23,048 nt of DNA from IMG/VR virus record IMGVR_UViG_2651869692_000002; one strand, 5' to 3'. Below, piece after piece: positions 6,854 to 18,618 of this stretch; positions within the stretch are counted from its first letter, which is position 1, and each line of letters starts with the position of its first letter. The stretch is from a virus. Its lineage: Duplodnaviria; Heunggongvirae; Uroviricota; Caudoviricetes. A program made the position numbers and the translations under genes. The notes beneath the pieces are model-generated. The model ran no database searches and was not told the origin of the DNA. It saw only the letters and a list, made by a program, of their open reading frames with translations.

Positions 6854-7504
6854 TCAGCGGCTGTCATTGCGCAGTCTGCGCTCCAGCTGCTGTTTGTCTT
6901 TTTTCACGCCACAGCGGGGATCGAGCTGTAACGCATGGTTGAGATGATTAAGGGCGGAAGCCGGATTGCTTTCACTCAGGACAGCGCCAATCGCTTTATG
7001 CAGACGCGCCCGTGACTGGTCCGGCATATCCAGACCGTCTGTCAGCTCCAGCGTCTGCAGCAACAGATCGGCATCAAAGCCGGTGGCGGCAAGCATTGCG
7101 CTCTGCGCTGCATCTGCCATTTCCTCTGCCAGCACGGTCTGCACGTTGCGGTTACCCAGCGGCATCACCCAGCCATGACGCAGGGCATGACGCCCAATCT
7201 CCAGCGCCCCGGCATAATCTCCGGCATCAATGCGCCACAGCATCACGTACATCAGCACGTCATCCTGTTGAGCGCCTCCGGCAGCCAGGACGCCCTCCGC
7301 CCAGGCGGCATATTTCGGCAGCAGCTCCACCTTGATTTCCGCTTTTTTCACCGTGGACTGAACGCCCTTGAGACGGCGGCGGTCTTCCGCCAGTTGCAGC
7401 AGCATCAGGTCATAGCCCGACGCGTGGCGAACACTGCCGCCCTCACGGGCGGCCTGTTCAGCCTGAACGCGCAGGCGATGCTGCCGTGCGGGACTCAGGC
7501 TCAT
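6854..7504 (-). CDS. M: Terminase small/endonuclease subunit (P2 gpM-like)
   Basis: 216-aa ORF; N-terminal ..RH..RV.A motif and central AQDD.LM.VMLWR.D.GD.AGALEI motif matching gpM. Confidence 0.8.
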   Translation of the reverse strand: MSLSPARQHRLRVQAEQAAREGGSVRHASGYDLMLLQLAEDRRRLKGVQSTVKKAEIKVELLPKYAAWAEGVLAAGGAQQDDVLMYVMLWRIDAGDYAGALEIGRHALRHGWVMPLGNRNVQTVLAEEMADAAQSAMLAATGFDADLLLQTLELTDGLDMPDQSRARLHKAIGAVLSESNPASALNHLNHALQLDPRCGVKKDKQQLERRLRNDSR

Positions 7505-7507
7505 GGT

Positions 7508-8563
7508 TTATGCTCCGGCTTCTACGGCGACGCTGAAGTCGCCAATCTGGATGTTTTCCACCAGTGCTGCGCAGCGGTAGTCCTCAACCACATAGGCTTC
7601 GTTAACGGATTCAAAGTTTTCAATCCGGTCACGTTTCGGGTTGTCGATAACTGAACGGCGGCGGGTGTCTTCCTGCCAGTAGATGGACAGGTTATCCAGA
7701 CGGGTGATCAGCAGCGCATTCGGCGGGAAGAACGGCGCACGCACGGCCTGCAGGCCACCCATGCGTTTCTGGCTGATGATCATATCGGCAGCCAGTTTTT
7801 CACTGTTTTCCTGCTCTTTGTTGACCAGCGGGAAATACTTATCAGACAACAGTTCACGACCGCAAATCACCACCAGATCGTCATCGTCCTGGTAGACCAC
7901 GTCGATAAGCTCATTGACCGCATCCATCACCACGGCGTCCAGGTTGGCATATTCGCCACCTTTACCGACTTTCACCGCGCCCGGTGTGGTTTCACCGCCC
8001 GTGGTGGTGCTGCCCATGACGTGATCCGGTGCATCCTCACGGATTTTCTGTAGCCAGCCTTTATTCACATCCTGCAGCAGCGGGTTTTCGCTGCGGTTGG
8101 AGGTTTTCGCACGCTTCACGCCGTTAAAGCCGATCATGATGCGGTCCAGTGCCTGACGTTTCACGATGGCGTCACGGATACGCACCTGGAAATCCTGAAA
8201 CTTCGCCCACAGGTCCAGCTTCGCGTAGGTCAGCACCGTGTCAAAGTTGGTCTGCTCGCATTTATATTCCACATCGACCATCAGCGTCGGATCGACAGGC
8301 TCACGCTCTTTTGCGGTGGTATCAGTGGTTCCTGCAATGGTGCTGCCAACACCCAGCCCCAGCAACTGACCAGACTGCTCAGTCACTGGCGTGACGTTAA
8401 TCAGCGTCAGGAATGCGGCGGACTGCTGGATCTGGTCTTCCAGCGTCTGCTGCACAGACGGCTCTACAGTAAACTTGCTGGACAGTTCTTCAACTGCCAC
8501 ACCGTTCAGACGCGCCAGCTGCTGCAGGTAAGCGTTAAAAGCAAAGCGGGTATTCTTCTTCAT
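7508..8563 (-). CDS. N: Major capsid protein (P2 gpN-like)
   Basis: 351-aa ORF with extended similarity to gpN (TRF.FNAYL, KFTVEPSV.QTL, GFNGVKRA.TS.RS.NP.LQDV, GKGG.YA.LDA.VMDA). Confidence 0.9.
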   Translation of the reverse strand: MKKNTRFAFNAYLQQLARLNGVAVEELSSKFTVEPSVQQTLEDQIQQSAAFLTLINVTPVTEQSGQLLGLGVGSTIAGTTDTTAKEREPVDPTLMVDVEYKCEQTNFDTVLTYAKLDLWAKFQDFQVRIRDAIVKRQALDRIMIGFNGVKRAKTSNRSENPLLQDVNKGWLQKIREDAPDHVMGSTTTGGETTPGAVKVGKGGEYANLDAVVMDAVNELIDVVYQDDDDLVVICGRELLSDKYFPLVNKEQENSEKLAADMIISQKRMGGLQAVRAPFFPPNALLITRLDNLSIYWQEDTRRRSVIDNPKRDRIENFESVNEAYVVEDYRCAALVENIQIGDFSVAVEAGA

Positions 8564-8579
8564 CAGGTTTTGTGCTCCA

Positions 8580-9413
8580 TCAGCAATTGGTCAGAGTGTC
8601 AGCGGGGGCGTTACCGCCTGTTGCACGCTGGCGGTAGTCCTGGCGGCTGTCTTCATGGCTCAGCTTGTCCACCAGTTCGTTAAAGGCGGTCTGCTGTGCC
8701 TGCAGAGCAATCTCCAGCTCAGACAGGCGTTCTTCCTGCTCAGACAGGGATTTTTCGGTGCGTGCGCTCAGGTTCTGCTGCTCAGTGGCGACCAGCTCCA
8801 CGGCCTTATGCACATCAGAGAATCGGGCGTCATCGGACTGCTCTTTTTTGGTGAACAGCGCCGTGACACGGGCAAACAGGGACGGTTTGTCATCCTGGAT
8901 TTCTTCCAGTTCGATCACCGTTTCCTCTGCAGCGGTAAAGAGATTGGCAGGATTCTGCTTGCGGTTTGCCAGCGGGTTATGGGCCGCACTGGCGCTGAAT
9001 GTCAGCATTTCAGTGCCCAGACTGGCAGGGTCATCAGTGGCAGCCAGGCCGACCAGGTAGGCTTTGCCCGTATCAGCAAACTTCGGGCTGACTTCCATAG
9101 AGGTGAATAATTTCTGGCCTTTTTTCACCAGCTCCACCAGGGATTCCGTTGGCTCAACGTCGGCATACAGCGCCATCTTGCCCGCCAGCGGACCTTCCGT
9201 GATTTCTTCAGCAAACAGCGCCGTCACCTTGCCGTAGCGGTTAAAGGTGCTGTCCGGCAGATAAGACTTGATGTGCTCAAGGTTAATCAGAGCGGTATAC
9301 ACCGCCGGGTTGTAGCTGGCTGCCATCTGTTCCAGCCATTCACGCTGGATTTCGCGTCCGTCGGTGGTGGCACCTTCCACCCCGATGCGAAAACGCTTTG
9401 CTTTCACTGTCAT
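8580..9413 (-). CDS. O: Capsid scaffolding protein (P2 gpO-like)
   Basis: 277-aa ORF; FRIGVEG...DGR, YLVGLA.TDDPASLGTE and C-terminal ATGG......TNC motifs as in gpO. Confidence 0.85.
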   Translation of the reverse strand: MTVKAKRFRIGVEGATTDGREIQREWLEQMAASYNPAVYTALINLEHIKSYLPDSTFNRYGKVTALFAEEITEGPLAGKMALYADVEPTESLVELVKKGQKLFTSMEVSPKFADTGKAYLVGLAATDDPASLGTEMLTFSASAAHNPLANRKQNPANLFTAAEETVIELEEIQDDKPSLFARVTALFTKKEQSDDARFSDVHKAVELVATEQQNLSARTEKSLSEQEERLSELEIALQAQQTAFNELVDKLSHEDSRQDYRQRATGGNAPADTLTNC

Positions 9414-9555: not shown

Positions 9556-11322
9556 ATGAACACCACACTGACACCCGCAGATCTCGATCCCCGTCGGCAG
9601 GCCATGCTGCTGTACTTTCAGGGATACCGTGTAGCCCGCATTGCTGAAATGCTGGGCGAGAAAGTTGCAACCGTTCACAGCTGGAAAAAACGCGACAAGT
9701 GGGGTGACTATGGGCCGCTGGATCAGATGCAGCTCACCACCGCCGCACGCTACTGCCAGCTCATTATGAAGGAGCACAAAGAAGGGAAAGATTTCAAAGA
9801 GATTGACCTGCTGGCGCGCCAGTCGGAGCGCCATGCGCGGATCGGCAAGTTTAACAATGGCGGCAACGAAGCCGACTTAAACCCTAACGTCGCCAACCGC
9901 AACAAAGGCCCGCGCCGTCAGCCGGAAAAGAACGTTTTCACCGATGAACAGATTGAGAAGCTGGAAGAAATCTTCCATTCCTCCATGTTCAACTACCAGC
10001 GCCACTGGTGGGAAGCCGGAAAAACCAACCGCATCCGCAACCTGCTGAAGTCACGCCAGATCGGCGCGACCTTCTATTTTGCCCGTGAAGCCCTGATTGA
10101 CGCCCTGCTAACCAGGCGTAACCAGATTTTCCTTTCCGCCAGCAAGGCTCAGGCCCACGTCTTCAAGCAGTACATCATCGACTTCGCCAAAGAAGTGGAG
10201 GTGGAGCTGAAAGGCGATCCGATGGTGCTTCCTAACGGGGCCACGCTGTACTTCCTCGGCACCAATGCCCGCACGGCCCAGAGTTACCACGGCAACCTGT
10301 ATCTGGATGAATATTTCTGGATACCGAAATTCCAGGAGCTGCGCAAAGTGGCTTCCGGTATGGCTATTCACAAAAAATGGCGACAAACCTATTTTTCCAC
10401 GCCATCCAGCCTGACACACAGTGCTTATCCGTTCTGGTCCGGTGCGCTGTTCAACCGAGGGCGCAACAAAGCCGATAAGGTGGACATCGACCTGTCCCAC
10501 AGCAATCTGGCCCCCGGCCTGCTGTGCGCAGACGGGCAGTACCGCCAGATAGTCACTGTGGAAGATGCGGTGCGCGGCGGCTGTAACCTGTTCGACCTCG
10601 ACCAGTTGCGCATGGAGTACAGCCCGGACGAATACCAGAACCTGCTGATGTGTGAGTTCGTGGACGATCTCGCGTCCGTGTTCCCGCTCAGCGAGCTGCA
10701 GGCGTGCATGGTGGACAGCTGGGAAGTCTGGACCGACTTTCATGCACTGGCGCTGCGCCCGTTTGGCTGGCGCGAAGTGTGGATCGGTTATGACCCGGCA
10801 AAAGGTACGCAAAACGGCGACAGCGCCGGATGCGTGGTGGTGGCTCCGCCAGCCGTGCCGGGCGGCAAGTTCCGCATTCTTGAGCGTCACCAGTGGCGCG
10901 GAATGGACTTTCGCGCCCAGGCTGACGCCATCAAAAAACTGACCGAACAGTATAACGTGACCTATATCGGCATCGACTCGACCGGCGTCGGTCACGGGGT
11001 TTACGAGAACGTGAAAGCGTTTTTTCCTGCCGTCCGGGAGTTTGTCTACAACCCCAACGTTAAAAACGCCCTGGTACTCAAGGCCTACGACATTATCAGC
11101 CACCGCCGCCTGGAGTTTGACGCCGGGCACACCGACATTGCGCAGTCATTTATGGCAATCCGTCGCGCTACCACTGCCAGTGGCAACCGCCCGACCTATG
11201 AAGCCAGCCGCAGCGAAGAAGCCAGCCATGCCGATCTGGCCTGGGCAACAATGCACGCACTGTTTAACGAACCGCTGCAGGGCGAGTCCGCCAATACCAG
11301 CAATATTGTGGAGATTTTTTGA
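9556..11322 (+). CDS. P: Terminase large/ATPase subunit (P2 gpP-like)
   Basis: 588-aa ORF, ATG at 9556, full-length resemblance to P2-family terminase large subunits; stop overlaps the Q start (TGATG). Confidence 0.9.
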   Translation: MNTTLTPADLDPRRQAMLLYFQGYRVARIAEMLGEKVATVHSWKKRDKWGDYGPLDQMQLTTAARYCQLIMKEHKEGKDFKEIDLLARQSERHARIGKFNNGGNEADLNPNVANRNKGPRRQPEKNVFTDEQIEKLEEIFHSSMFNYQRHWWEAGKTNRIRNLLKSRQIGATFYFAREALIDALLTRRNQIFLSASKAQAHVFKQYIIDFAKEVEVELKGDPMVLPNGATLYFLGTNARTAQSYHGNLYLDEYFWIPKFQELRKVASGMAIHKKWRQTYFSTPSSLTHSAYPFWSGALFNRGRNKADKVDIDLSHSNLAPGLLCADGQYRQIVTVEDAVRGGCNLFDLDQLRMEYSPDEYQNLLMCEFVDDLASVFPLSELQACMVDSWEVWTDFHALALRPFGWREVWIGYDPAKGTQNGDSAGCVVVAPPAVPGGKFRILERHQWRGMDFRAQADAIKKLTEQYNVTYIGIDSTGVGHGVYENVKAFFPAVREFVYNPNVKNALVLKAYDIISHRRLEFDAGHTDIAQSFMAIRRATTASGNRPTYEASRSEEASHADLAWATMHALFNEPLQGESANTSNIVEIF

Positions 11323-12356
11323 TGGGAAAGAGTAAGAAGAACCGCGCTGCGTCGACGAAACAGATCCAGCATAAAAGCCAGACTTCAGCCGAAGCATTCA
11401 GCTTCGGTGATCCCGTTCCTGTTCTGGACCGCCGCGAACTGCTGGACTATGTGGAATGCGTACAGATGGATCGCTGGTATGAGCCACCAGTGAGTTTCGA
11501 CGGACTGGCGCGAACCTTCCGCGCCGCCATACATCATAGCTCACCGATTGCAGTGAAGTGCAACATTCTGACCAGCACCTACATCCCTCACCCGCTGCTC
11601 AGCCAGCAGGCTTTTTCGCGTTTTGTACAGGACTTTCTGGTTTTTGGTAACGCCTACCTGGAGAAACGCACGAACCGCTTCGGTGAAGTTATAGCCCTTG
11701 AGCCTGCTCTGGCAAAATACACCCGACGCGGGTTAGACCTGGATACCTACTGGTTTGTGCAATACGGTATGACAACCCAGCCGTATCAGTTCACGAAAGG
11801 CAGCATTTTTCATCTGATGGAGCCGGACATCAACCAGGAGATCTACGGCCTGCCCGGTTATCTTTCTGCCATTCCGTCAGCCCTGCTCAACGAGTCCGCC
11901 ACGCTGTTCCGCCGGAAGTATTACATTAACGGCAGCCATGCGGGCTTCATCATGTACATGACCGACGCCGCGCAGAACCAGGAGGATGTGAACAACCTCC
12001 GCAACGCAATGAAAAGTGCCAAAGGTCCTGGTAACTTCCGTAACCTGTTTATGTACTCGCCTAACGGCAAAAAGGACGGGCTTCAGATTATCCCGTTGTC
12101 AGAAGTGGCGGCGAAGGATGAGTTCCTGAATATCAAGAACGTGAGCCGGGACGACATGATGGCGGCGCATCGTGTGCCGCCGCAAATGATGGGTATCATT
12201 CCCAACAATACCGGCGGTTTTGGGGATGTGGAAAAGGCCAGTCGCGTCTTCACAAGAAACGAAATAGTACCGTTACAAAAGCGATTGCTGGAGCTAAATG
12301 AATGGCTTGGTGAAGAGGTAGTCCGATTCAATCCATATGAGCTTAATACTGACTAG
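11322..12356 (+). CDS. Q: Portal (capsid portal vertex) protein (P2 gpQ-like)
   Basis: Track ORF starts at a TTG at 11319; the ATG at 11322 gives 344 aa, the length I recall for gpQ; the last ~80 nt are visibly AT-richer than the rest. Confidence 0.9.
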   Translation: MGKSKKNRAASTKQIQHKSQTSAEAFSFGDPVPVLDRRELLDYVECVQMDRWYEPPVSFDGLARTFRAAIHHSSPIAVKCNILTSTYIPHPLLSQQAFSRFVQDFLVFGNAYLEKRTNRFGEVIALEPALAKYTRRGLDLDTYWFVQYGMTTQPYQFTKGSIFHLMEPDINQEIYGLPGYLSAIPSALLNESATLFRRKYYINGSHAGFIMYMTDAAQNQEDVNNLRNAMKSAKGPGNFRNLFMYSPNGKKDGLQIIPLSEVAAKDEFLNIKNVSRDDMMAAHRVPPQMMGIIPNNTGGFGDVEKASRVFTRNEIVPLQKRLLELNEWLGEEVVRFNPYELNTD

Positions 12357-12670: not shown

Positions 12671-13270
12671 CTACTGTTTCTTAGAAGTAATGTAGCGTCT
12701 TACTACATCAGTTATTGTAGCAAAAGGTGCCGAAAGCAAGCTTATATCACCTTTAAAACCAAATTTTTTATAGTGGTCAGCAACTTTTTGATTCAGGGCT
12801 TCAGGGATCCGAATCTCTTGACACCCAACCGCGCTACCAAAAAGATATACCGCCCACAATGTAACCATGAACATGTTGCCGTAAAGAGGGTGCTCTACGT
12901 CATCATCTTTCACAAAAGATTCCACAAAATGGATCTCTATGACTCCAGCGTCCTCGTCAAAGGTGCACATAGCTGCGCCAGAAGGGATATGCCTAAGTGG
13001 CCCCGCAAGGAGCTTCAAACAAAATTCAAACTTATCACTTCGATTGCCAAACCGAGAAAAACCATAATCCCATTCTAGCTGAGCGTATCCTGTGGTCAGG
13101 ATCACATAGTCTTCATCACTGATTGGACCAACAGCCAACGGCATCTTCAAAGTATCGAGGAGAAACTGAAGGTTACTTATACTTTGACTGGCAATCTGCT
13201 CTAAGTTCAATTCTCTGTCCTTCATGCTTACGACATTAAAGGCGACTACTTTAATGTCATTTTCGGACAA
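12671..13270 (-). CDS. Hypothetical protein (199 aa), AT-rich accessory gene between the portal gene and the putative cos
   Basis: 600-nt ORF in an AT-rich region; start uncertain (TTG at 13270 or ATG at 13225, neither with a strong RBS); no family recognised. Confidence 0.5.
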   Translation of the reverse strand: MSENDIKVVAFNVVSMKDRELNLEQIASQSISNLQFLLDTLKMPLAVGPISDEDYVILTTGYAQLEWDYGFSRFGNRSDKFEFCLKLLAGPLRHIPSGAAMCTFDEDAGVIEIHFVESFVKDDDVEHPLYGNMFMVTLWAVYLFGSAVGCQEIRIPEALNQKVADHYKKFGFKGDISLLSAPFATITDVVRRYITSKKQ

Positions 13271-13496
13271 AGACTATAAATCTTTAATGAAACAATAGCA
13301 GAACCTTTTAAAGGTTTGCTACCTATCACTGCAACTTGTGACAGAACACTAAATCTACAGCCAACTCCGGAACACATTCAACATTTATTTAAATCCCTTC
13401 AAACAAGATTGCACAAAAACGCGCCCTCCCTTTCAGAAGAAAACCATCAGCGGGCCTGAGGCTAAGTGAATTTTACTATTTCAACCCGCGGCGCGC

Positions 13497-13515
13497 GCTC
13501 GTATCCCCGCCACGC
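13497..13515 (-). other. Putative cos site (cohesive-end region) of the P2/186 family
   Basis: Minus strand reads GGCGTGGCGGGGATACGAG; the first 13 nt match my recollection of the P2/186 cohesive-end consensus (GGCG(A/T)GGCGGGGAAAGCA.), in the orientation expected for the Q-proximal genome end; GC-rich island inside AT-rich DNA. Confidence 0.4.
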
Positions 13516-13560
13516 CTGCCCGCTTTGTGTAGTGGTTTTCATGCACCTGCATGACATAAG

Positions 13561-13584
13561 CAAAAGCCCGCCAGCTCTGGCGGG
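13561..13584 (-). terminator. Rho-independent terminator downstream of the HNH gene
   Basis: 9-bp GC stem GCCCGCCAG / CTGGCGGGC followed on the minus strand by TTTTGCTT. Confidence 0.55.
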
Positions 13585-13698
13585 CATCAGCAAAAACGAT
13601 CCTCAAACGATCATGCGATTTCATGCGGCATAGACATGCGTTGGCAAAAATGCACGAAATACTCAGCTTATAGGAAATGGTCTTTTTCCAACCTCCAG

Positions 13699-14418
13699 TT
13701 AGCCAAAGCAGAAACCAATATTGCAATTTGAAACTCCACAGTTGTGAAATTGATGTGGACCTACTCTTAGCTTGTGTTCGTCTCCTACAATCCGAGTCCC
13801 CTTAACCAACATATCTAATCTTTCCACAATCAATCTTTCAGGCGCATCAACTTTAATAATTAAACGAGGACCTTTCCTTTTTTCTATAATAGTTATTCTA
13901 GGACCGACAACCTGAACATCCCAATGCCTTGCACTACAAACCCACTCATTCTTAATTAATTCAAGATTAACAATACCTTGACTATCGTAAAATTTACCCG
14001 AAATAAGAAAAGCATTATTTTCTTTTTCAATGGTTAACAATGGCTCATTTTGAAACATTATTGGTACAGTACAGGATTCAAACGTCGCACCACCAAATAT
14101 TATTGTTGGATGCCTATCAGAAAAGTCCAATATATCGGCCACATTCCCTTTTTGTAAGGCTGCAGGAGATTCCATTGCTTTAATTATTTTCTCTTTAGAG
14201 TAAAGACGTTTCGTTACTTTCGCATGGCACGTAGGACAAAGTAGTGCTATTGCATTTGGAGAGTGCTCCTTTGCATCAGCGTATGTGGGAATTACATGCT
14301 CATACTCAACAATGGGAGAAGCACAAACAACGCAACCGAAGCCACAGCGCTGCCTTACCTCCAGTTTTACAGGTTCAGGAATTGTTCTAGATAACCCATG
14401 CTTGTTAATAGTTGTCAT
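13699..14418 (-). CDS. HNH-family endonuclease domain protein with uncharacterised ~160-aa C-terminal domain
   Basis: 239-aa ORF, ATG at 14418; N-terminal CGFGCVVC...EYEHVIP...NAIALLCPTCH matches the HNH fold (paired Cys plus H-N-H residues); AT-rich composition; own terminator. Confidence 0.7.
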   Translation of the reverse strand: MTTINKHGLSRTIPEPVKLEVRQRCGFGCVVCASPIVEYEHVIPTYADAKEHSPNAIALLCPTCHAKVTKRLYSKEKIIKAMESPAALQKGNVADILDFSDRHPTIIFGGATFESCTVPIMFQNEPLLTIEKENNAFLISGKFYDSQGIVNLELIKNEWVCSARHWDVQVVGPRITIIEKRKGPRLIIKVDAPERLIVERLDMLVKGTRIVGDEHKLRVGPHQFHNCGVSNCNIGFCFG

Positions 14419-14540
14419 AACCTTACCTTAAAACTTCGAGAAACCTTTTATATATTGATACTATATCAACTAACGCCTCGCACAGCTCGTTGTTCAACCT
14501 TGCTGACGCCAGAAGCAAGTTCAGACGCCAGCAACGTTTC

Positions 14541-14774
14541 TTAATGCAGCCAGCTGTCGTCTTCCCACACCTTCTGCATAATTTTCATCACTTGTTTTCT
14601 TTCTTCGTCCAGTTGAAGTCCGGTCAGTTCCACACCGTTAGAGCTACCTTTGCGGATACGAATTACCGTTTTGGGATACAGGGGGCGCAGATTGCGGTAA
14701 AGCTCGGATTCAAGGGCGTCCAGGGTAGACTGGCTAATCTTCTGCTCTTTATCGATCATTATTTCAATGCGCAT
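14541..14774 (-). CDS. dinI: DinI-family protein
   Basis: ATG at 14774 with GAGGTGA RBS; MRIEIMIDK...L.ELYRNLRPLYPKTVIRIRKGSSNGVELTGL...KQVMKIMQKVWEDDSWL resembles DinI (MRIEVTI..., C-terminal ...WE..D.W); the track ORF's longer N-terminus is a frame artefact. Confidence 0.75.
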   Translation of the reverse strand: MRIEIMIDKEQKISQSTLDALESELYRNLRPLYPKTVIRIRKGSSNGVELTGLQLDEERKQVMKIMQKVWEDDSWLH

Positions 14775-14784
14775 AAAAGTCACC

Positions 14785-14973
14785 TCAACTGATGACATCC
14801 ATTGAGCGGTTGTATTCGTGGGTTCTGATTTTTGCCATGAGTTCATCTGTCAGTTCAGAAACCCACTGCAGGGCCAGCCCCTTCTCTTCATCACTACACT
14901 CACTAGCCGCTACAAGCTTAAGAAAAAAATCAATGCGCTGGAGCTTCAAAGACTCCAAAAAATAGTCCTGCAT
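14785..14973 (-). CDS. Small SOS-controlled protein (62 aa), first gene downstream of a LexA box; possible Tum-like antirepressor component
   Basis: ATG at 14973 with AGGAGG RBS, 41 nt downstream of a consensus LexA box; stop overlaps the RBS of the DinI-like gene; functional assignment is by position only. Confidence 0.5.
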   Translation of the reverse strand: MQDYFLESLKLQRIDFFLKLVAASECSDEEKGLALQWVSELTDELMAKIRTHEYNRSMDVIS

Positions 14974-15014
14974 CTTTCCTCCTATGACACCACAAGAAAT
15001 ACTGTAAATATAAC

Positions 15015-15034
15015 CACTGTTTATATTTACAGTA
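15015..15034 (-). promoter_or_regulatory. LexA operator (SOS box) at the promoter of the small-ORF / dinI module
   Basis: Minus strand TACTGTAAATATAAACAGTG fits CTGT-N8-ACAG with AT-rich spacer; an adjacent half-site (CTGT at 15002-15005) is also present. Confidence 0.7.
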
Positions 15035-15125
15035 TATAATAATCTTACTGATGTAAAACGTTTTTTACGTTCATCAGCCTGATATGCCTGGTATTATTAA
15101 GAGCACGAATTGTTAACCCGCGTGA

Positions 15126-17540
15126 TTAATACAGGTTCCGCCACTTATCATCTTCCTGCAAACGCTGGTTCCGATAGAAGATACGCAGGCCTGCTCCTGA
15201 CGGAATACTGCCGCCGCGAAGGAGTAAATCGACCTCTTTCTCGCTGCCATCAAATCCTCTGGACTTCAGTTCATAGACGAGCTGCTGTCGCTGATGGTCT
15301 GTAATTCGCTGTTTGTAGTCTTTACGCCGTTTCGGTTTCACCAGGCGTAACCTTGCTGCCAGTTCCCGGCGCTCTTTTTTGCTCATACTGTGCAGGTAAT
15401 CGTGCAACTCCTTGTCATCCATGCGGGTAATGTCCGTTCTGGTATCCCCATCAGCTGATTTGTCTTTCCCTTGTTGGTTCAAATTTTCAGCAAGGGGACA
15501 GTTATTGCCACGAGTCCAAGGGGCGCAAGCGCCCTGGTCGGCTGCCGCCTCCTGAACGTCAACGGCCTTACGAACCATTTTCCACTTCACGGCATGAGTG
15601 CAGATCTTGCCCTCTGCAATAGGTGACCAGATGCCATAAATACGAATGCCGTGATCGCCATAGGCGGTCGGCTCTTCGTTGATTTCATAAGCAGTTCTGA
15701 TGAGGTGATATTTACGGGGAACCAGTACGCCGCCCTGCTTCATGATGTAGGTGGCAAAACAACCAGCATCAGCAGCAGCCAGGATTGCATCAAGCCGCGG
15801 GTTATCCAGTACCGGCGCACCTGCTTTTTTGTCACCCTGTTGCCTTGCCGCCTGACCAGCCAGCAATCGCAGTTCACGGTAAGCCTGACGCCCCGGAATG
15901 CCAAAGAAGCGGAATTGCTGAACACGATGCAGAGACGCCCAGGCATTCACGTATTCAGCGTTATCACGCAGGGATTTACCCGTTTCCTTGCTGATCTCGC
16001 CAGCCAGACCACGCCCGTCAATGTTCTTACTGATATATTTCGCGATGTAGCTTGTCGGCGTTCCTTTGCGCGGGTTAATCAACTCAGACTTAAAGCGTGG
16101 TCCCGTGTTATTCCCCAGCTCCTCGCGGTCTTCACGAATGGCAAACTTACGCAACAAAGCAGTAATGGCGCGGCGATCTTTTTTGCGCATAAAACACAAC
16201 AGGTGCCAGTGAACTGTACCGTCATGATGCGGCTCAGCCACCCGCACGCCATACCAGCGCAATCCGGCTTTGTGCATCGCCTTACGAAATGCAGCAAACA
16301 TGCCAACCAGATAATCACTGCTTTGTCTTACCGTCGCATTTGTCCAGGTCGGGTTGGGCCTGCCGTTATTTAGCGTGGAATGGAAACGTGACGGACAGGT
16401 GATGGTGTAGAAAACGGCGCAGTCACCGCGCATTTCCGCGATAAGCTCCAGGCCTTTAACACAGGCCATCATCTCATTGCGGCGATGCGCAGGGTTGCTG
16501 CTGCTGGCGTTTACCACATCCTCCATGTCCAGCGTGTCGCCGTCTTCGTTCACCAGTTCATGAGAACGGAAAAACTCCAGCGACTTACGGCGCTGCTCAC
16601 GTTTATGCATCACGGCTTCATAGCTGACATAGGGAGATGCTTTTTTGCTGACCAGACAGACAGCACGCAACTGCTCTTCCCGCCATTCGCAACGCATCTT
16701 CCATAATTTCCGATACCACCAGTCGGCGCACAGCATACGCGCCAGCGAACCCGGAATGAGTTCATAGGGCACAGGTTTGCGGCGGTTTCTTTTTCGGCGG
16801 AGTTGCTCAAACGCAGGCGGTATGACATCCAGTCGCAGGGTTTCTGCTGCCACCTTTTCCCATGTCTTGCGGATTTCTTCCGGCTTAACATCATCGGAGG
16901 CGTACAAATCACCACAAGCGGCATCAAGACACATGCTCATATGCGCAGCGACAAGGGTGGACAGGCGTTTCACCTGATCCTGACTCATTTCAGGCAGGAT
17001 CAGCAGACCGTCCAGCCCTTCATGGCTTGCCATAAAACGAAAAGATGCAGATAGCTGGCTGTCGCGTACATGCTCCAGTCGTTCCAGGCATGGCTTAATC
17101 GTCTCACGCAAATAGCGGGAATAAGCCTTTGGCCTGCCCAGGTTGCTGAAGTATTTAATACGTTGCATCAGCGGCTTGCTGATATGGGAAGGCTGGGCGT
17201 TGACATCCGCCAGAATGACCATGTCTGGATTAAAACGCTGCTGCTCATGCGCCAGCTTTGCCCGGCTAATTAGCTTATCCTGCTCCATTTCGCGCTGGAC
17301 AGGATCACGGGATTCATTAAAGAAATAACGCTCCCAGACCTGATCACTCAGTGCCTCGCGGCGCAGTTGTTCCTGCTCGTTATCGGCAGCGTACAGAGTG
17401 ATCAGGTTTGAAAGTGCAGAAACCGGCGCAACTTCCGCCGGGTCCAGATAAGGGTTAATGGCCTTTTTCGGGCTGTTCCATGAGAATGCTGCGGCAGCCT
17501 CGTTAAAGCCGCAGCAGTTGTTCATATCGGCATGACTCAT
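15126..17540 (-). CDS. A: Rolling-circle replication initiation protein (P2 gpA-like)
   Basis: 804-aa ORF with HWHLL metal-binding motif and YIAKYISK tyrosine motif typical of gpA/phiX174-type Rep proteins; canonical position after the early operon. Confidence 0.85.
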
Positions 17541-18394
17541 GCACGTACTCCGTACACGGCAGAACTGTCCACGCCACGCGAATAATCAAATCCCACCCAG
17601 CAGCGCGGCCCGGAAACAGCAATGATTTCTGTTGCTGATTTACCCTCGCCAGCTGCCACACCGATGTTGCGTTTTGCCTTGATGTAGTGGTGAGTAAAAT
17701 TGCGATACAGCGAACGGATCAGGGATGTGTCACTGTTAGAAACAATGACCGGATGTCCTTCTGATGACCGATGTTCAAGAACGGATGCCAGGTGATACTG
17801 GTCATCTTCAGTGAAGCCGTCAGTGTGATAACCGGAAAACGTGCCGTCATACGGCGGATCGCAATACACCACATCCCCCGCCTTCAACATCGCCAGCGTT
17901 TCATCAAAGCTGGCGCAGATAAACGTTGCCCGCTGGGCTTTTTCTGCAAATGCGCGAATTTCTTTTTCAGGGAAATACGGATTTTTATAATTACCGTAGG
18001 GAATGTTGAAATGCCCGCTCTTGTTATAGCGACATAAACCACGGTAACCGTGACGATTGAGATACAGGAAATATACCGCTTTCATGAAATCAGTAATTTC
18101 AGTGGAGTAATTAAACTCCTGCCTTATGTTGTAATAAGCCACCTCCCTGTTTGCGATCTCAAATAAAACTCTGGCGCGAGATATAAACGATTCACAATCA
18201 GCGGCAACCTTTTTATAGAGGTTGATTAAATCAGGATTAATATCCGCAACCAGATAGCTGGGGTAATCCGTCTCCATCATCACAGCACAGGAACCCGCGA
18301 AAGGTTCAACCAGTCGCGGGCCAGCAGGAAGGTGTTTTTTCAGTTCGGACATAATGGCGGTTTTATTTCCCGCCCATTTCAGGATGGTGCTCAT
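17537..18394 (-). CDS. dam: DNA adenine (N6) methyltransferase, Dam-like
   Basis: ATG at 18394 ([11 protein letters not shown]...) with GGAGGTG RBS and ATGA overlap with the upstream gene; DPPY catalytic motif ([10 protein letters not shown]); the track ORF's 20 extra N-terminal residues are probably not translated. Confidence 0.85.
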
Positions 18395-18618
18395 ACAGCA
18401 CCTCCGTTGTAATGTTTGCCTTTCAGCTCTGCGATTTCCTGACAGGTAATGCAAAGCTGCACACCTGGAATGGCGCGGCGGCGTGCTGGCGGAATTGGCG
18501 CTTCACACTCAATGCAAAGCACGCGGGACACGCCCGGCGTTTTGGCACGGGCAGCACGGATATGGCGCTGGCGTTCTTCTTCAACGCGCTGCTGTACAAG
18601 ATCCATTGCATCAGCCAT
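18391..18618 (-). CDS. TraR/DksA-family C4 zinc-finger protein
   Basis: 75-aa ORF with C-x2-C ... C-x2-C (CIECEAPIPPARRRAIPGVQLCITCQ). Confidence 0.7.
   Translation of the reverse strand: MADAMDLVQQRVEEERQRHIRAARAKTPGVSRVLCIECEAPIPPARRRAIPGVQLCITCQEIAELKGKHYNGGAV

Follow-up and report, generated by a model that had tools for sequence, protein, structure and literature searches.

The 23,048-nucleotide stretch of DNA analysed here (the window; IMG/VR record IMGVR_UViG_2651869692_000002) is a P2/186/Fels-2-like (Peduoviridae) prophage in reverse orientation to the P2 map. Between its replication gene gpA and its portal gene gpQ, it carries a 239-aa open reading frame (ORF) that joins an HNH domain to an all-beta C-terminal domain. 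This HNH gene is an optional cargo (“moron”) of the gpA-cos-gpQ variable hotspot. The evidence firmly supports a functional, selected, mobile, stand-alone HNH-family nuclease gene that temperate phages and plasmids carry as an optional moron. With a probability of roughly one half, its product acts as a stand-alone single-gene nuclease in inter-element conflict (anti-phage defence or competitor exclusion), in which the beta domain either holds the DNase in check or directs it. The phage defence hotspot in which the gene sits is known; what is new is an uncharacterised family that pairs HNH with a novel beta domain.

The nuclease assignment concerns the N-terminal part of the protein, in which the first-pass annotation of this DNA had read an HNH signature. 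Pfam PF01844 (HNH) matches residues 29-71 with 24.8 bits against a cutoff of 21.4 (E=2.4e-5), and C29, C32, H41, H52, C61, and C64 are invariant across 56 aligned homologs reaching down to 38% identity. The four cysteines are the zinc cysteines and H41 is the general-base histidine, which bears that signature out; the last metal-ligand position, 65, is H in the window protein and H or N across the family. The beta-beta-alpha fold with its CxxC...CxxC zinc site, by which membership of the HNH superfamily is judged, is present, and the core is of the zinc-finger McrA/Cap5 type. Judged by these residues, the catalytic set of a predicted McrA/Cap5/IscB-type HNH DNA nuclease domain appears to be intact. 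The ATG start codon is supported by the N-terminal MxxxNKHGLSR, which homologs keep. The protein is identical to the cluster representative P0001 and is annotated as WP_000207842.1 (“HNH endonuclease”) in E. coli locus H28, which shares 99.3% DNA identity with the window.

The gene is as AT-rich as originally described, with 38.3% GC overall and 28% GC at third codon positions (GC3) versus 51% GC for the window and 57% GC3 for gpA. Between the window gene and its Citrobacter ortholog, the ratio of nonsynonymous to synonymous substitution rates (dN/dS) is 0.045 and equal for both halves of the protein, which points to strong purifying selection on the whole protein between genera.

For the last ~155 residues, searches of Pfam, NCBIfam, PADLOC, and Protein Data Bank (PDB) sequences gave no match. 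The only full-length match of the HNH protein is PHROG 6544 (“unknown function”; E=2.5e-111), which is its family and carries no functional annotation, hence no information on function. An AlphaFold2 model made from the family alignment has a predicted local distance difference test (pLDDT) score of 93.5 and a predicted TM score (pTM) of 0.85, and it arranges residues ~92-238 as about 15-17 consecutive antiparallel strands. The best Foldseek match among the BFVD viral predicted structures reaches only E=0.27, and hhalign of one half of the beta domain against the other detects no internal repeats. The modelled fold thus appears to lack a recognised relative in the libraries searched (Pfam, NCBIfam, PADLOC, PDB, BFVD). 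The initial impression that some 160 C-terminal residues resemble nothing recognisable holds for all five, and structure prediction now describes these residues as a confidently modelled all-beta domain.

A word-indexed search returned 269 full-length relatives, and a profile of the C-terminal domain run exhaustively against 1.84 billion representatives matches 1940 clusters (defined at 50% identity) at E ≤ 1e-3 and 1010 at E ≤ 1e-10. Among the best 150 profile matches, the domain of complete proteins starts near residue 85 behind the same HNH domain, members without an HNH domain are truncated calls whose start lies within it, and some, a minority, are extended at the C-terminus by TPR, SEC-C, or a CxxCxxCC zinc domain. 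Because no other N-terminal partner or domain-swapped architecture of the beta domain occurs among these 150, the HNH and beta domains behave as one unit. Genome matches come from Pseudomonadota, Cyanobacteria, Bacteroidota, Chloroflexota, Planctomycetota, Verrucomicrobiota, Acidobacteriota, and Nitrospirota, together with one Saccharibacteria metagenome-assembled genome (MAG) and two archaeal MAGs, MAG assignments calling for caution.

The cargo status of the gene is seen by comparison with related phages. A megablast of 13300-15100 against phage records matched the flanks and not the HNH gene. In Escherichia phage vB_EcoM-813R9, 13491-13639 and 14470-15100 align to DNA that is contiguous save for 9 bp (empty-slot junction ...GCGTTAGCTCTGTAGTGCATGTC...), which sets the limits of the cargo module (Table 1). 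In Fels-2, an unrelated 243-aa gene lies in the interval from the same downstream junction to the stop codon of dinI. The upstream edge of a stretch of GCATG repeats (13640) is a recombination junction that different cargos share. A survey of 5426 complete E. coli genomes yields 1259 with the backbone flanks and 21 with the module, which is annotated as intact in the records listed.

The location between gpA and gpQ beside cos is the slot of a published hotspot of P2-like phages, from which Rousset et al. (2022) curated 169 genetic systems, several of them validated as anti-phage (PMC9122126). In the portion of their Table S5A considered here, WP_000207842 occurs 16 times, labelled only “hypothetical”, and its partners across cos vary, e.g., WP_000859244 or a TIR-like protein (PMC9122126). 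The accession is absent from the main text of the DefensePredictor paper. Like P2 old/tin and the Rousset systems, the HNH gene lies between gene A and cos/portal Q, and P2 tin and old are on the same (A) side of cos. Like other cargo of the P2 hotspot, it is optional, swappable, and low in GC, and it is accompanied by validated defence systems in sister prophages. Unlike the old/tin hotspot cargo, it runs in the gpA direction and not from a cos-proximal promoter, and its product has no sequence or domain kinship with either Old (an OLD-family ATPase/Toprim) or Tin.

The closest orthologs, from Citrobacter (86% identity), Cronobacter (61%), and Hafnia (53%), are all found at this position in P2-like prophages too, with gpA and a small ORF preceding them and cos following; in Citrobacter, DinI follows the small ORF as it does in the window. 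Across cos from these orthologs lie a RES-domain protein, a type I-C retron RT-Toprim, or Septu PtuA/PtuB. Relatives of ~40% identity are found directly after O/P in the nin region of lambdoid prophages, including those of E. coli (a cluster of 262 member sequences), the Enterobacter cloacae complex, and Klebsiella phage ST846-OXA48phi9.2. One Pseudomonas prophage has a relative within its early region, and an Acinetobacter plasmid has one next to toxin-antitoxin and AAA_15/21 genes. In some P2-like myoviruses (L117/L118), a relative is inserted antisense, with the tail-completion genes on one side and the baseplate genes on the other. The viral contigs of IMG/VR that encode a relative number 138, and terminase genes are not among its frequent neighbours.

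Neighbours were compared by all-versus-all clustering of up to five ORFs on each side of the gene at 78 diverse genome loci. No conserved partner, immunity gene, or operon emerged from these loci, the largest neighbour cluster spanning five of them. Immediate neighbours are heterogeneous, many of them housekeeping genes and three of them integrases, with single matches to AbiO, Nhi, SoFic, HEC-06, IetS, AbiU, and SspE.

Some local arrangements recur within narrow groups. At four loci on Acinetobacter plasmid contigs that carry a homolog of 46% identity (L010-L013), the same 119-aa ORF follows on the same strand and a 135-aa ORF (140 aa in L013) lies on the opposite strand. The 119- and 135-aa ORFs have no Pfam match, and they may represent a lineage-specific partner or one conserved plasmid segment. 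In Enterobacter lambdoid prophages (L004-L008), the homolog is followed by ORFs of 93-95 and 75 aa and then by a 459-aa RES-domain protein. A different RES protein lies across cos from the Citrobacter ortholog (L097), and the recurrence of RES near the family may be coincidence.

A defence role is suggested by the association with a validated hotspot and by analogy with sensor-HNH effectors, and the retention of the slot in three genera, opposite Septu, retron, or RES genes, supports it. By analogy with Cap5 and type IV sensor-plus-HNH effectors, the beta domain would restrain or target the HNH nuclease until a foreign cue or substrate appears. Transcripts of the gene in this prophage would probably arise as read-through of the LexA-controlled orf62-dinI unit, the early operon, or both. 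The likeness to Cap5, the HNH-SAVED effector of CBASS, has its bounds: the structural match is limited to the HNH part with a high root-mean-square deviation, and, unlike Cap5, the HNH protein lacks a SAVED domain and has neither a CD-NTase nor any other CBASS gene in its neighbourhood. The first-pass annotation had offered three options, namely an anti-phage nuclease, a homing endonuclease, or a packaging-associated HNH. The first of these is now the best supported, all of that support being contextual; homing is disfavoured, and packaging fails on distribution. A bolder form of the defence reading, which is tentative and clearly less probable, would make the HNH-beta family (PHROG 6544; ~1,900 clusters, many bacterial phyla, and a few archaeal MAGs) an unrecognised single-protein immune nuclease that is SOS-wired in this phage. 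In that version, the beta domain would represent a new sensing or reading fold, which would switch on the HNH DNase upon encountering a phage component or an unusual feature in DNA.

Several observations weigh against a defence role. PADLOC-DB v2 yields no significant match, the best E values of 0.0095 (mREase_IV) and 0.035 covering the HNH core only. No anti-phage phenotype is known for a family member, and no paper naming WP_000207842 or describing the family was found in the library searched. Defence-island enrichment outside phages is weak because chromosomal neighbours are mostly housekeeping genes and the defence matches are scattered. The central Asn of the H-N-H motif is present in the window protein as N55 at canonical spacing, and its column varies in the family (D/S/A/Q/E); the invariant H52 may stand in for it. 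Nothing in the data points to a binding partner of the beta domain. Classic prophage defence requires expression in the uninduced lysogen, which is unproven here because the HNH gene has no convincing promoter of its own: the 51 bp of cargo DNA that precede its start codon contain no convincing sigma-70 promoter, and promoter-like sites in four orthologous upstream regions are no commoner than in shuffled sequence.

Expression is also central to the competing explanation that survives best, which is unlikely but carries some weight. The protein would be a lytic-cycle helper nuclease, expressed early in infection or once the SOS response or the prophage has been induced, that acts on host or competitor DNA and gives the lysogen no protection. 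Variants of this explanation are degradation of the host chromosome, a recombination function like that of the RecA-dependent HNH protein Ref of P1, and anti-defence. A canonical LexA box (CTGT-N8-ACAG within tatACTGTaaatataaACAGtgg) precedes the 62-aa ORF and the DinI-like gene, and the HNH gene is co-oriented with this unit and lies 122 bp downstream of it, with no convincing terminator or promoter of its own in between. The absence of a clear terminator had been proposed at the outset and is upheld, as the only structure found is a U-less imperfect hairpin (14533-14499) that is not a convincing terminator. Because only this hairpin parts the HNH gene from dinI, SOS co-transcription by read-through from the LexA-controlled promoter is plausible, though unproven, and it keeps the lytic helper alive. 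The lambdoid homologs, which follow O/P directly and point the same way as the early rightward operon, also favour it. However, the gene is dispensable, being present in 21 of the 1259 E. coli genomes with the backbone flanks. Some homologs lie antisense within late tail operons, an arrangement typical of morons expressed during lysogeny, and others occur on plasmids and in non-phage chromosomal contexts. In addition, the Cronobacter orthologs have no DinI gene upstream and instead show a >200-bp AT-rich spacer before the gene.

The perfect inverted repeat noted just upstream of the HNH gene does exist, but the operator role once suggested for it does not hold up. The window contains five perfect 6-3-6 repeats (87 with spacers of 0-8), and the repeat is broken upstream of the 86%-identical Citrobacter ortholog, which together place it at chance level.

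The LexA box, the 62-aa ORF, and the DinI-like gene (14541-15032) form a Tum-type SOS-inducible unit of the 186/PSP3 kind, which suggests that the prophage is SOS-inducible like 186 and not non-inducible like P2. Upstream of the Hafnia ortholog (L103, 3894-3957), an extended -10 promoter-like site precedes a hairpin that resembles a terminator and has a T run, ~45 bp before the start codon. This hairpin could be an attenuator, and the window has nothing comparable.

HNH is a classic homing-endonuclease fold, and a selfish, free-standing homing-type enzyme would cut alleles without the gene and be copied in by repair, with the beta domain serving in DNA recognition. The HNH gene is consistent with such an element in being lone, AT-rich, intergenic, and without a partner, as well as in occupying many unrelated positions, including between conserved phage structural genes, in many phyla. 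Homing is nevertheless a less probable account than the lytic helper for several reasons: (i) no NUMOD, IENR1, AP2, helix-turn-helix, or other homing-type module is detected with Pfam and NCBIfam, which find nothing outside HNH; (ii) the HNH core is of the zinc-finger McrA/Cap5 type; (iii) no target-site duplication or split target is present at the module junctions; and (iv) the whole protein appears to be under strong purifying selection between genera. Moreover, the slot holds many unrelated cargos (169 curated systems; PMC9122126) and shares its downstream junction with the unrelated Fels-2 cargo, both of which argue for slot recombination rather than site-specific homing.

A modification-dependent (type IV-like) restriction enzyme is a sub-case within the defence reading and not additive to it. 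Here, the beta domain would read a modified phage base and HNH would then cut the modified phage DNA, sparing host DNA. EcoKMcrA, ScoMcrA, TagI, and VcaM4I are among the proteins nearest to the HNH core in structure and sequence, a weak PADLOC mREase_IV match covers the HNH region, and a single protein without a partner needs intrinsic self/non-self discrimination. The sub-case is doubtful, however, as the HNH-first domain order is the reverse of that in McrA, TagI, and VcaM4I, and the beta domain is unrelated to the modification-reading domains of the McrA family. No recognisable modified-base reader domain is fused to HNH in the window protein, and the sequence matches are limited to the HNH core and score below any family threshold.

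The distance between the gene and the putative cos, first estimated at ~180 bp, measures 183 bp from the HNH stop codon. The putative cohesive end GGCGTGGCGGGGATACGAG is identical to the annotated P2 cosL GGCGAGGCGGGGAAAGCAC at 12 of 13 positions over the first bases, and with its flanking GCATG repeats it is kept in P2-like prophages of Escherichia, Citrobacter, Cronobacter, and Hafnia. Several GCATG/TGCATG repeats are located at 13590-13660 (minus strand) between the cargo slot and cos; they are kept in four genera (loci L097, L100, L102, and L103) and could be terminase-binding (cosB-like) elements. The strong intrinsic terminator previously credited to the HNH gene belongs instead to the backbone, before cos, because its DNA (13585-13566) is 91-95% identical in phages without the gene. 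A packaging-associated HNH that helps the terminase at cos, as in HK97-like cos phages, shares the HNH fold and the nearness to cos but is excluded by distribution and contexts: most phages with the same cos, gpP/gpM terminase, and portal lack the gene or have unrelated genes in the slot (old and tin in P2), the module being in 21 genomes versus 1259 with the flanks; homologs lie in nin regions or tail clusters, not beside terminase genes, as well as on plasmids and chromosomes; and, unlike HK97-type (gp74-like) proteins, the window protein is not conserved with the packaging module and is twice the size, with an extra 155-aa domain.

Read from the portal, the window presents a short variable stretch, cos, the minus-strand HNH ORF, the DinI-like gene, the 62-aa ORF, and gpA (Table 1). 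Gene assignments come from PHROG matches and the RefSeq annotation of E. coli locus H28. The second cargo ORF, on the portal side of cos, is 184 aa long (WP_223417136.1) in the annotation of the near-identical E. coli locus, has no match in Pfam or PADLOC, and is another hotspot candidate. Its likely counterpart in the portion of Table S5A considered, judged by gene-list position and not by sequence, is WP_000859244. The latter adjoins DUF2971 or HEPN_LA2681 cargos elsewhere, and as a counterpart it would make the second cargo ORF independent of the HNH gene. A restriction-modification pairing of the HNH gene with the Dam-type methylase of the window was set aside, as the methylase belongs to the common backbone.

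Table 1. Features of the window around the HNH gene, with positions counted from the first letter of the window.
Feature	Position	Strand	Basis or remark
Capsid, scaffold, and small terminase genes	6854-9413	-	PHROG and RefSeq annotation of 99.3%-identical locus
gpP terminase ATPase	9556-11322	+	PHROG and RefSeq annotation of 99.3%-identical locus
gpQ portal, one hotspot border	11319-12356	+	PHROG and RefSeq annotation of 99.3%-identical locus
59-aa ORF just past portal stop codon	12412-12591	-	Hypothetical protein in E. coli relative; no family match
Second cargo ORF, portal side of cos, 199 aa as called	12671-13270	-	Matches PHROG 4350 (unknown function)
Putative 19-nt cos cohesive end, GGCGTGGCGGGGATACGAG	13498-13516	-	Likeness to P2 cosL; conservation
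Intrinsic terminator, 8-bp GC-rich stem and T run, between cargo slot and cos	13566-13585	-	Terminator scan
Cargo module, ~830 bp, 37.7% GC	13640-14469	-	Comparison with empty-slot phage vB_EcoM-813R9
HNH and beta-domain ORF, 239 aa, ATG start	13699-14418	-	ORF call, Pfam, PHROG
Predicted all-beta domain, residues 86-239, ~15 antiparallel strands; invariant N157, W166, D167, M203, G235	13702-14163	-	
N-terminal region, residues 1-85: NKHGLSRxIP motif, helix, CxxC...H...CxxC-H zinc-finger HNH (beta-beta-alpha-metal) core, two linker helices	14164-14418	-	
6-bp perfect inverted repeat TTGATA-TAG-TATCAA, upstream edge of cargo module	14455-14469	.	
Imperfect 11-bp hairpin after dinI-like stop codon, no U tract; conserved backbone	14499-14533	-	Read from sequence; not reported by terminator scan
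DinI-like (Tum-type) gene directly upstream of HNH gene	14541-14774	-	
62-aa ORF, first gene of LexA-box operon	14785-14973	-	
LexA (SOS) box, CTGTTTATATTTACAG	15017-15032	.	
gpA replication endonuclease, other hotspot border	15126-17540	-	PHROG and RefSeq annotation
D12-class N6-adenine DNA methyltransferase (Dam-like), overlapping and directly upstream of gpA, early operon	17537-18454	-	

The HNH gene is a reasonable candidate for wet-lab study, and one that would not surprise a specialist. Members of its family occur in P2-like and lambdoid prophages of enterobacterial pathogens and across many phyla. Should the protein prove to be a lytic-cycle or selfish nuclease instead, it would mark a limit of guilt-by-association annotation in the P2 hotspot. 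If the defence or competition role is validated, the family would provide a small nuclease (239 aa) that works without a partner and has a regulatory domain of novel structure, as well as a tractable system for learning what stops a bare HNH DNase from killing its host.
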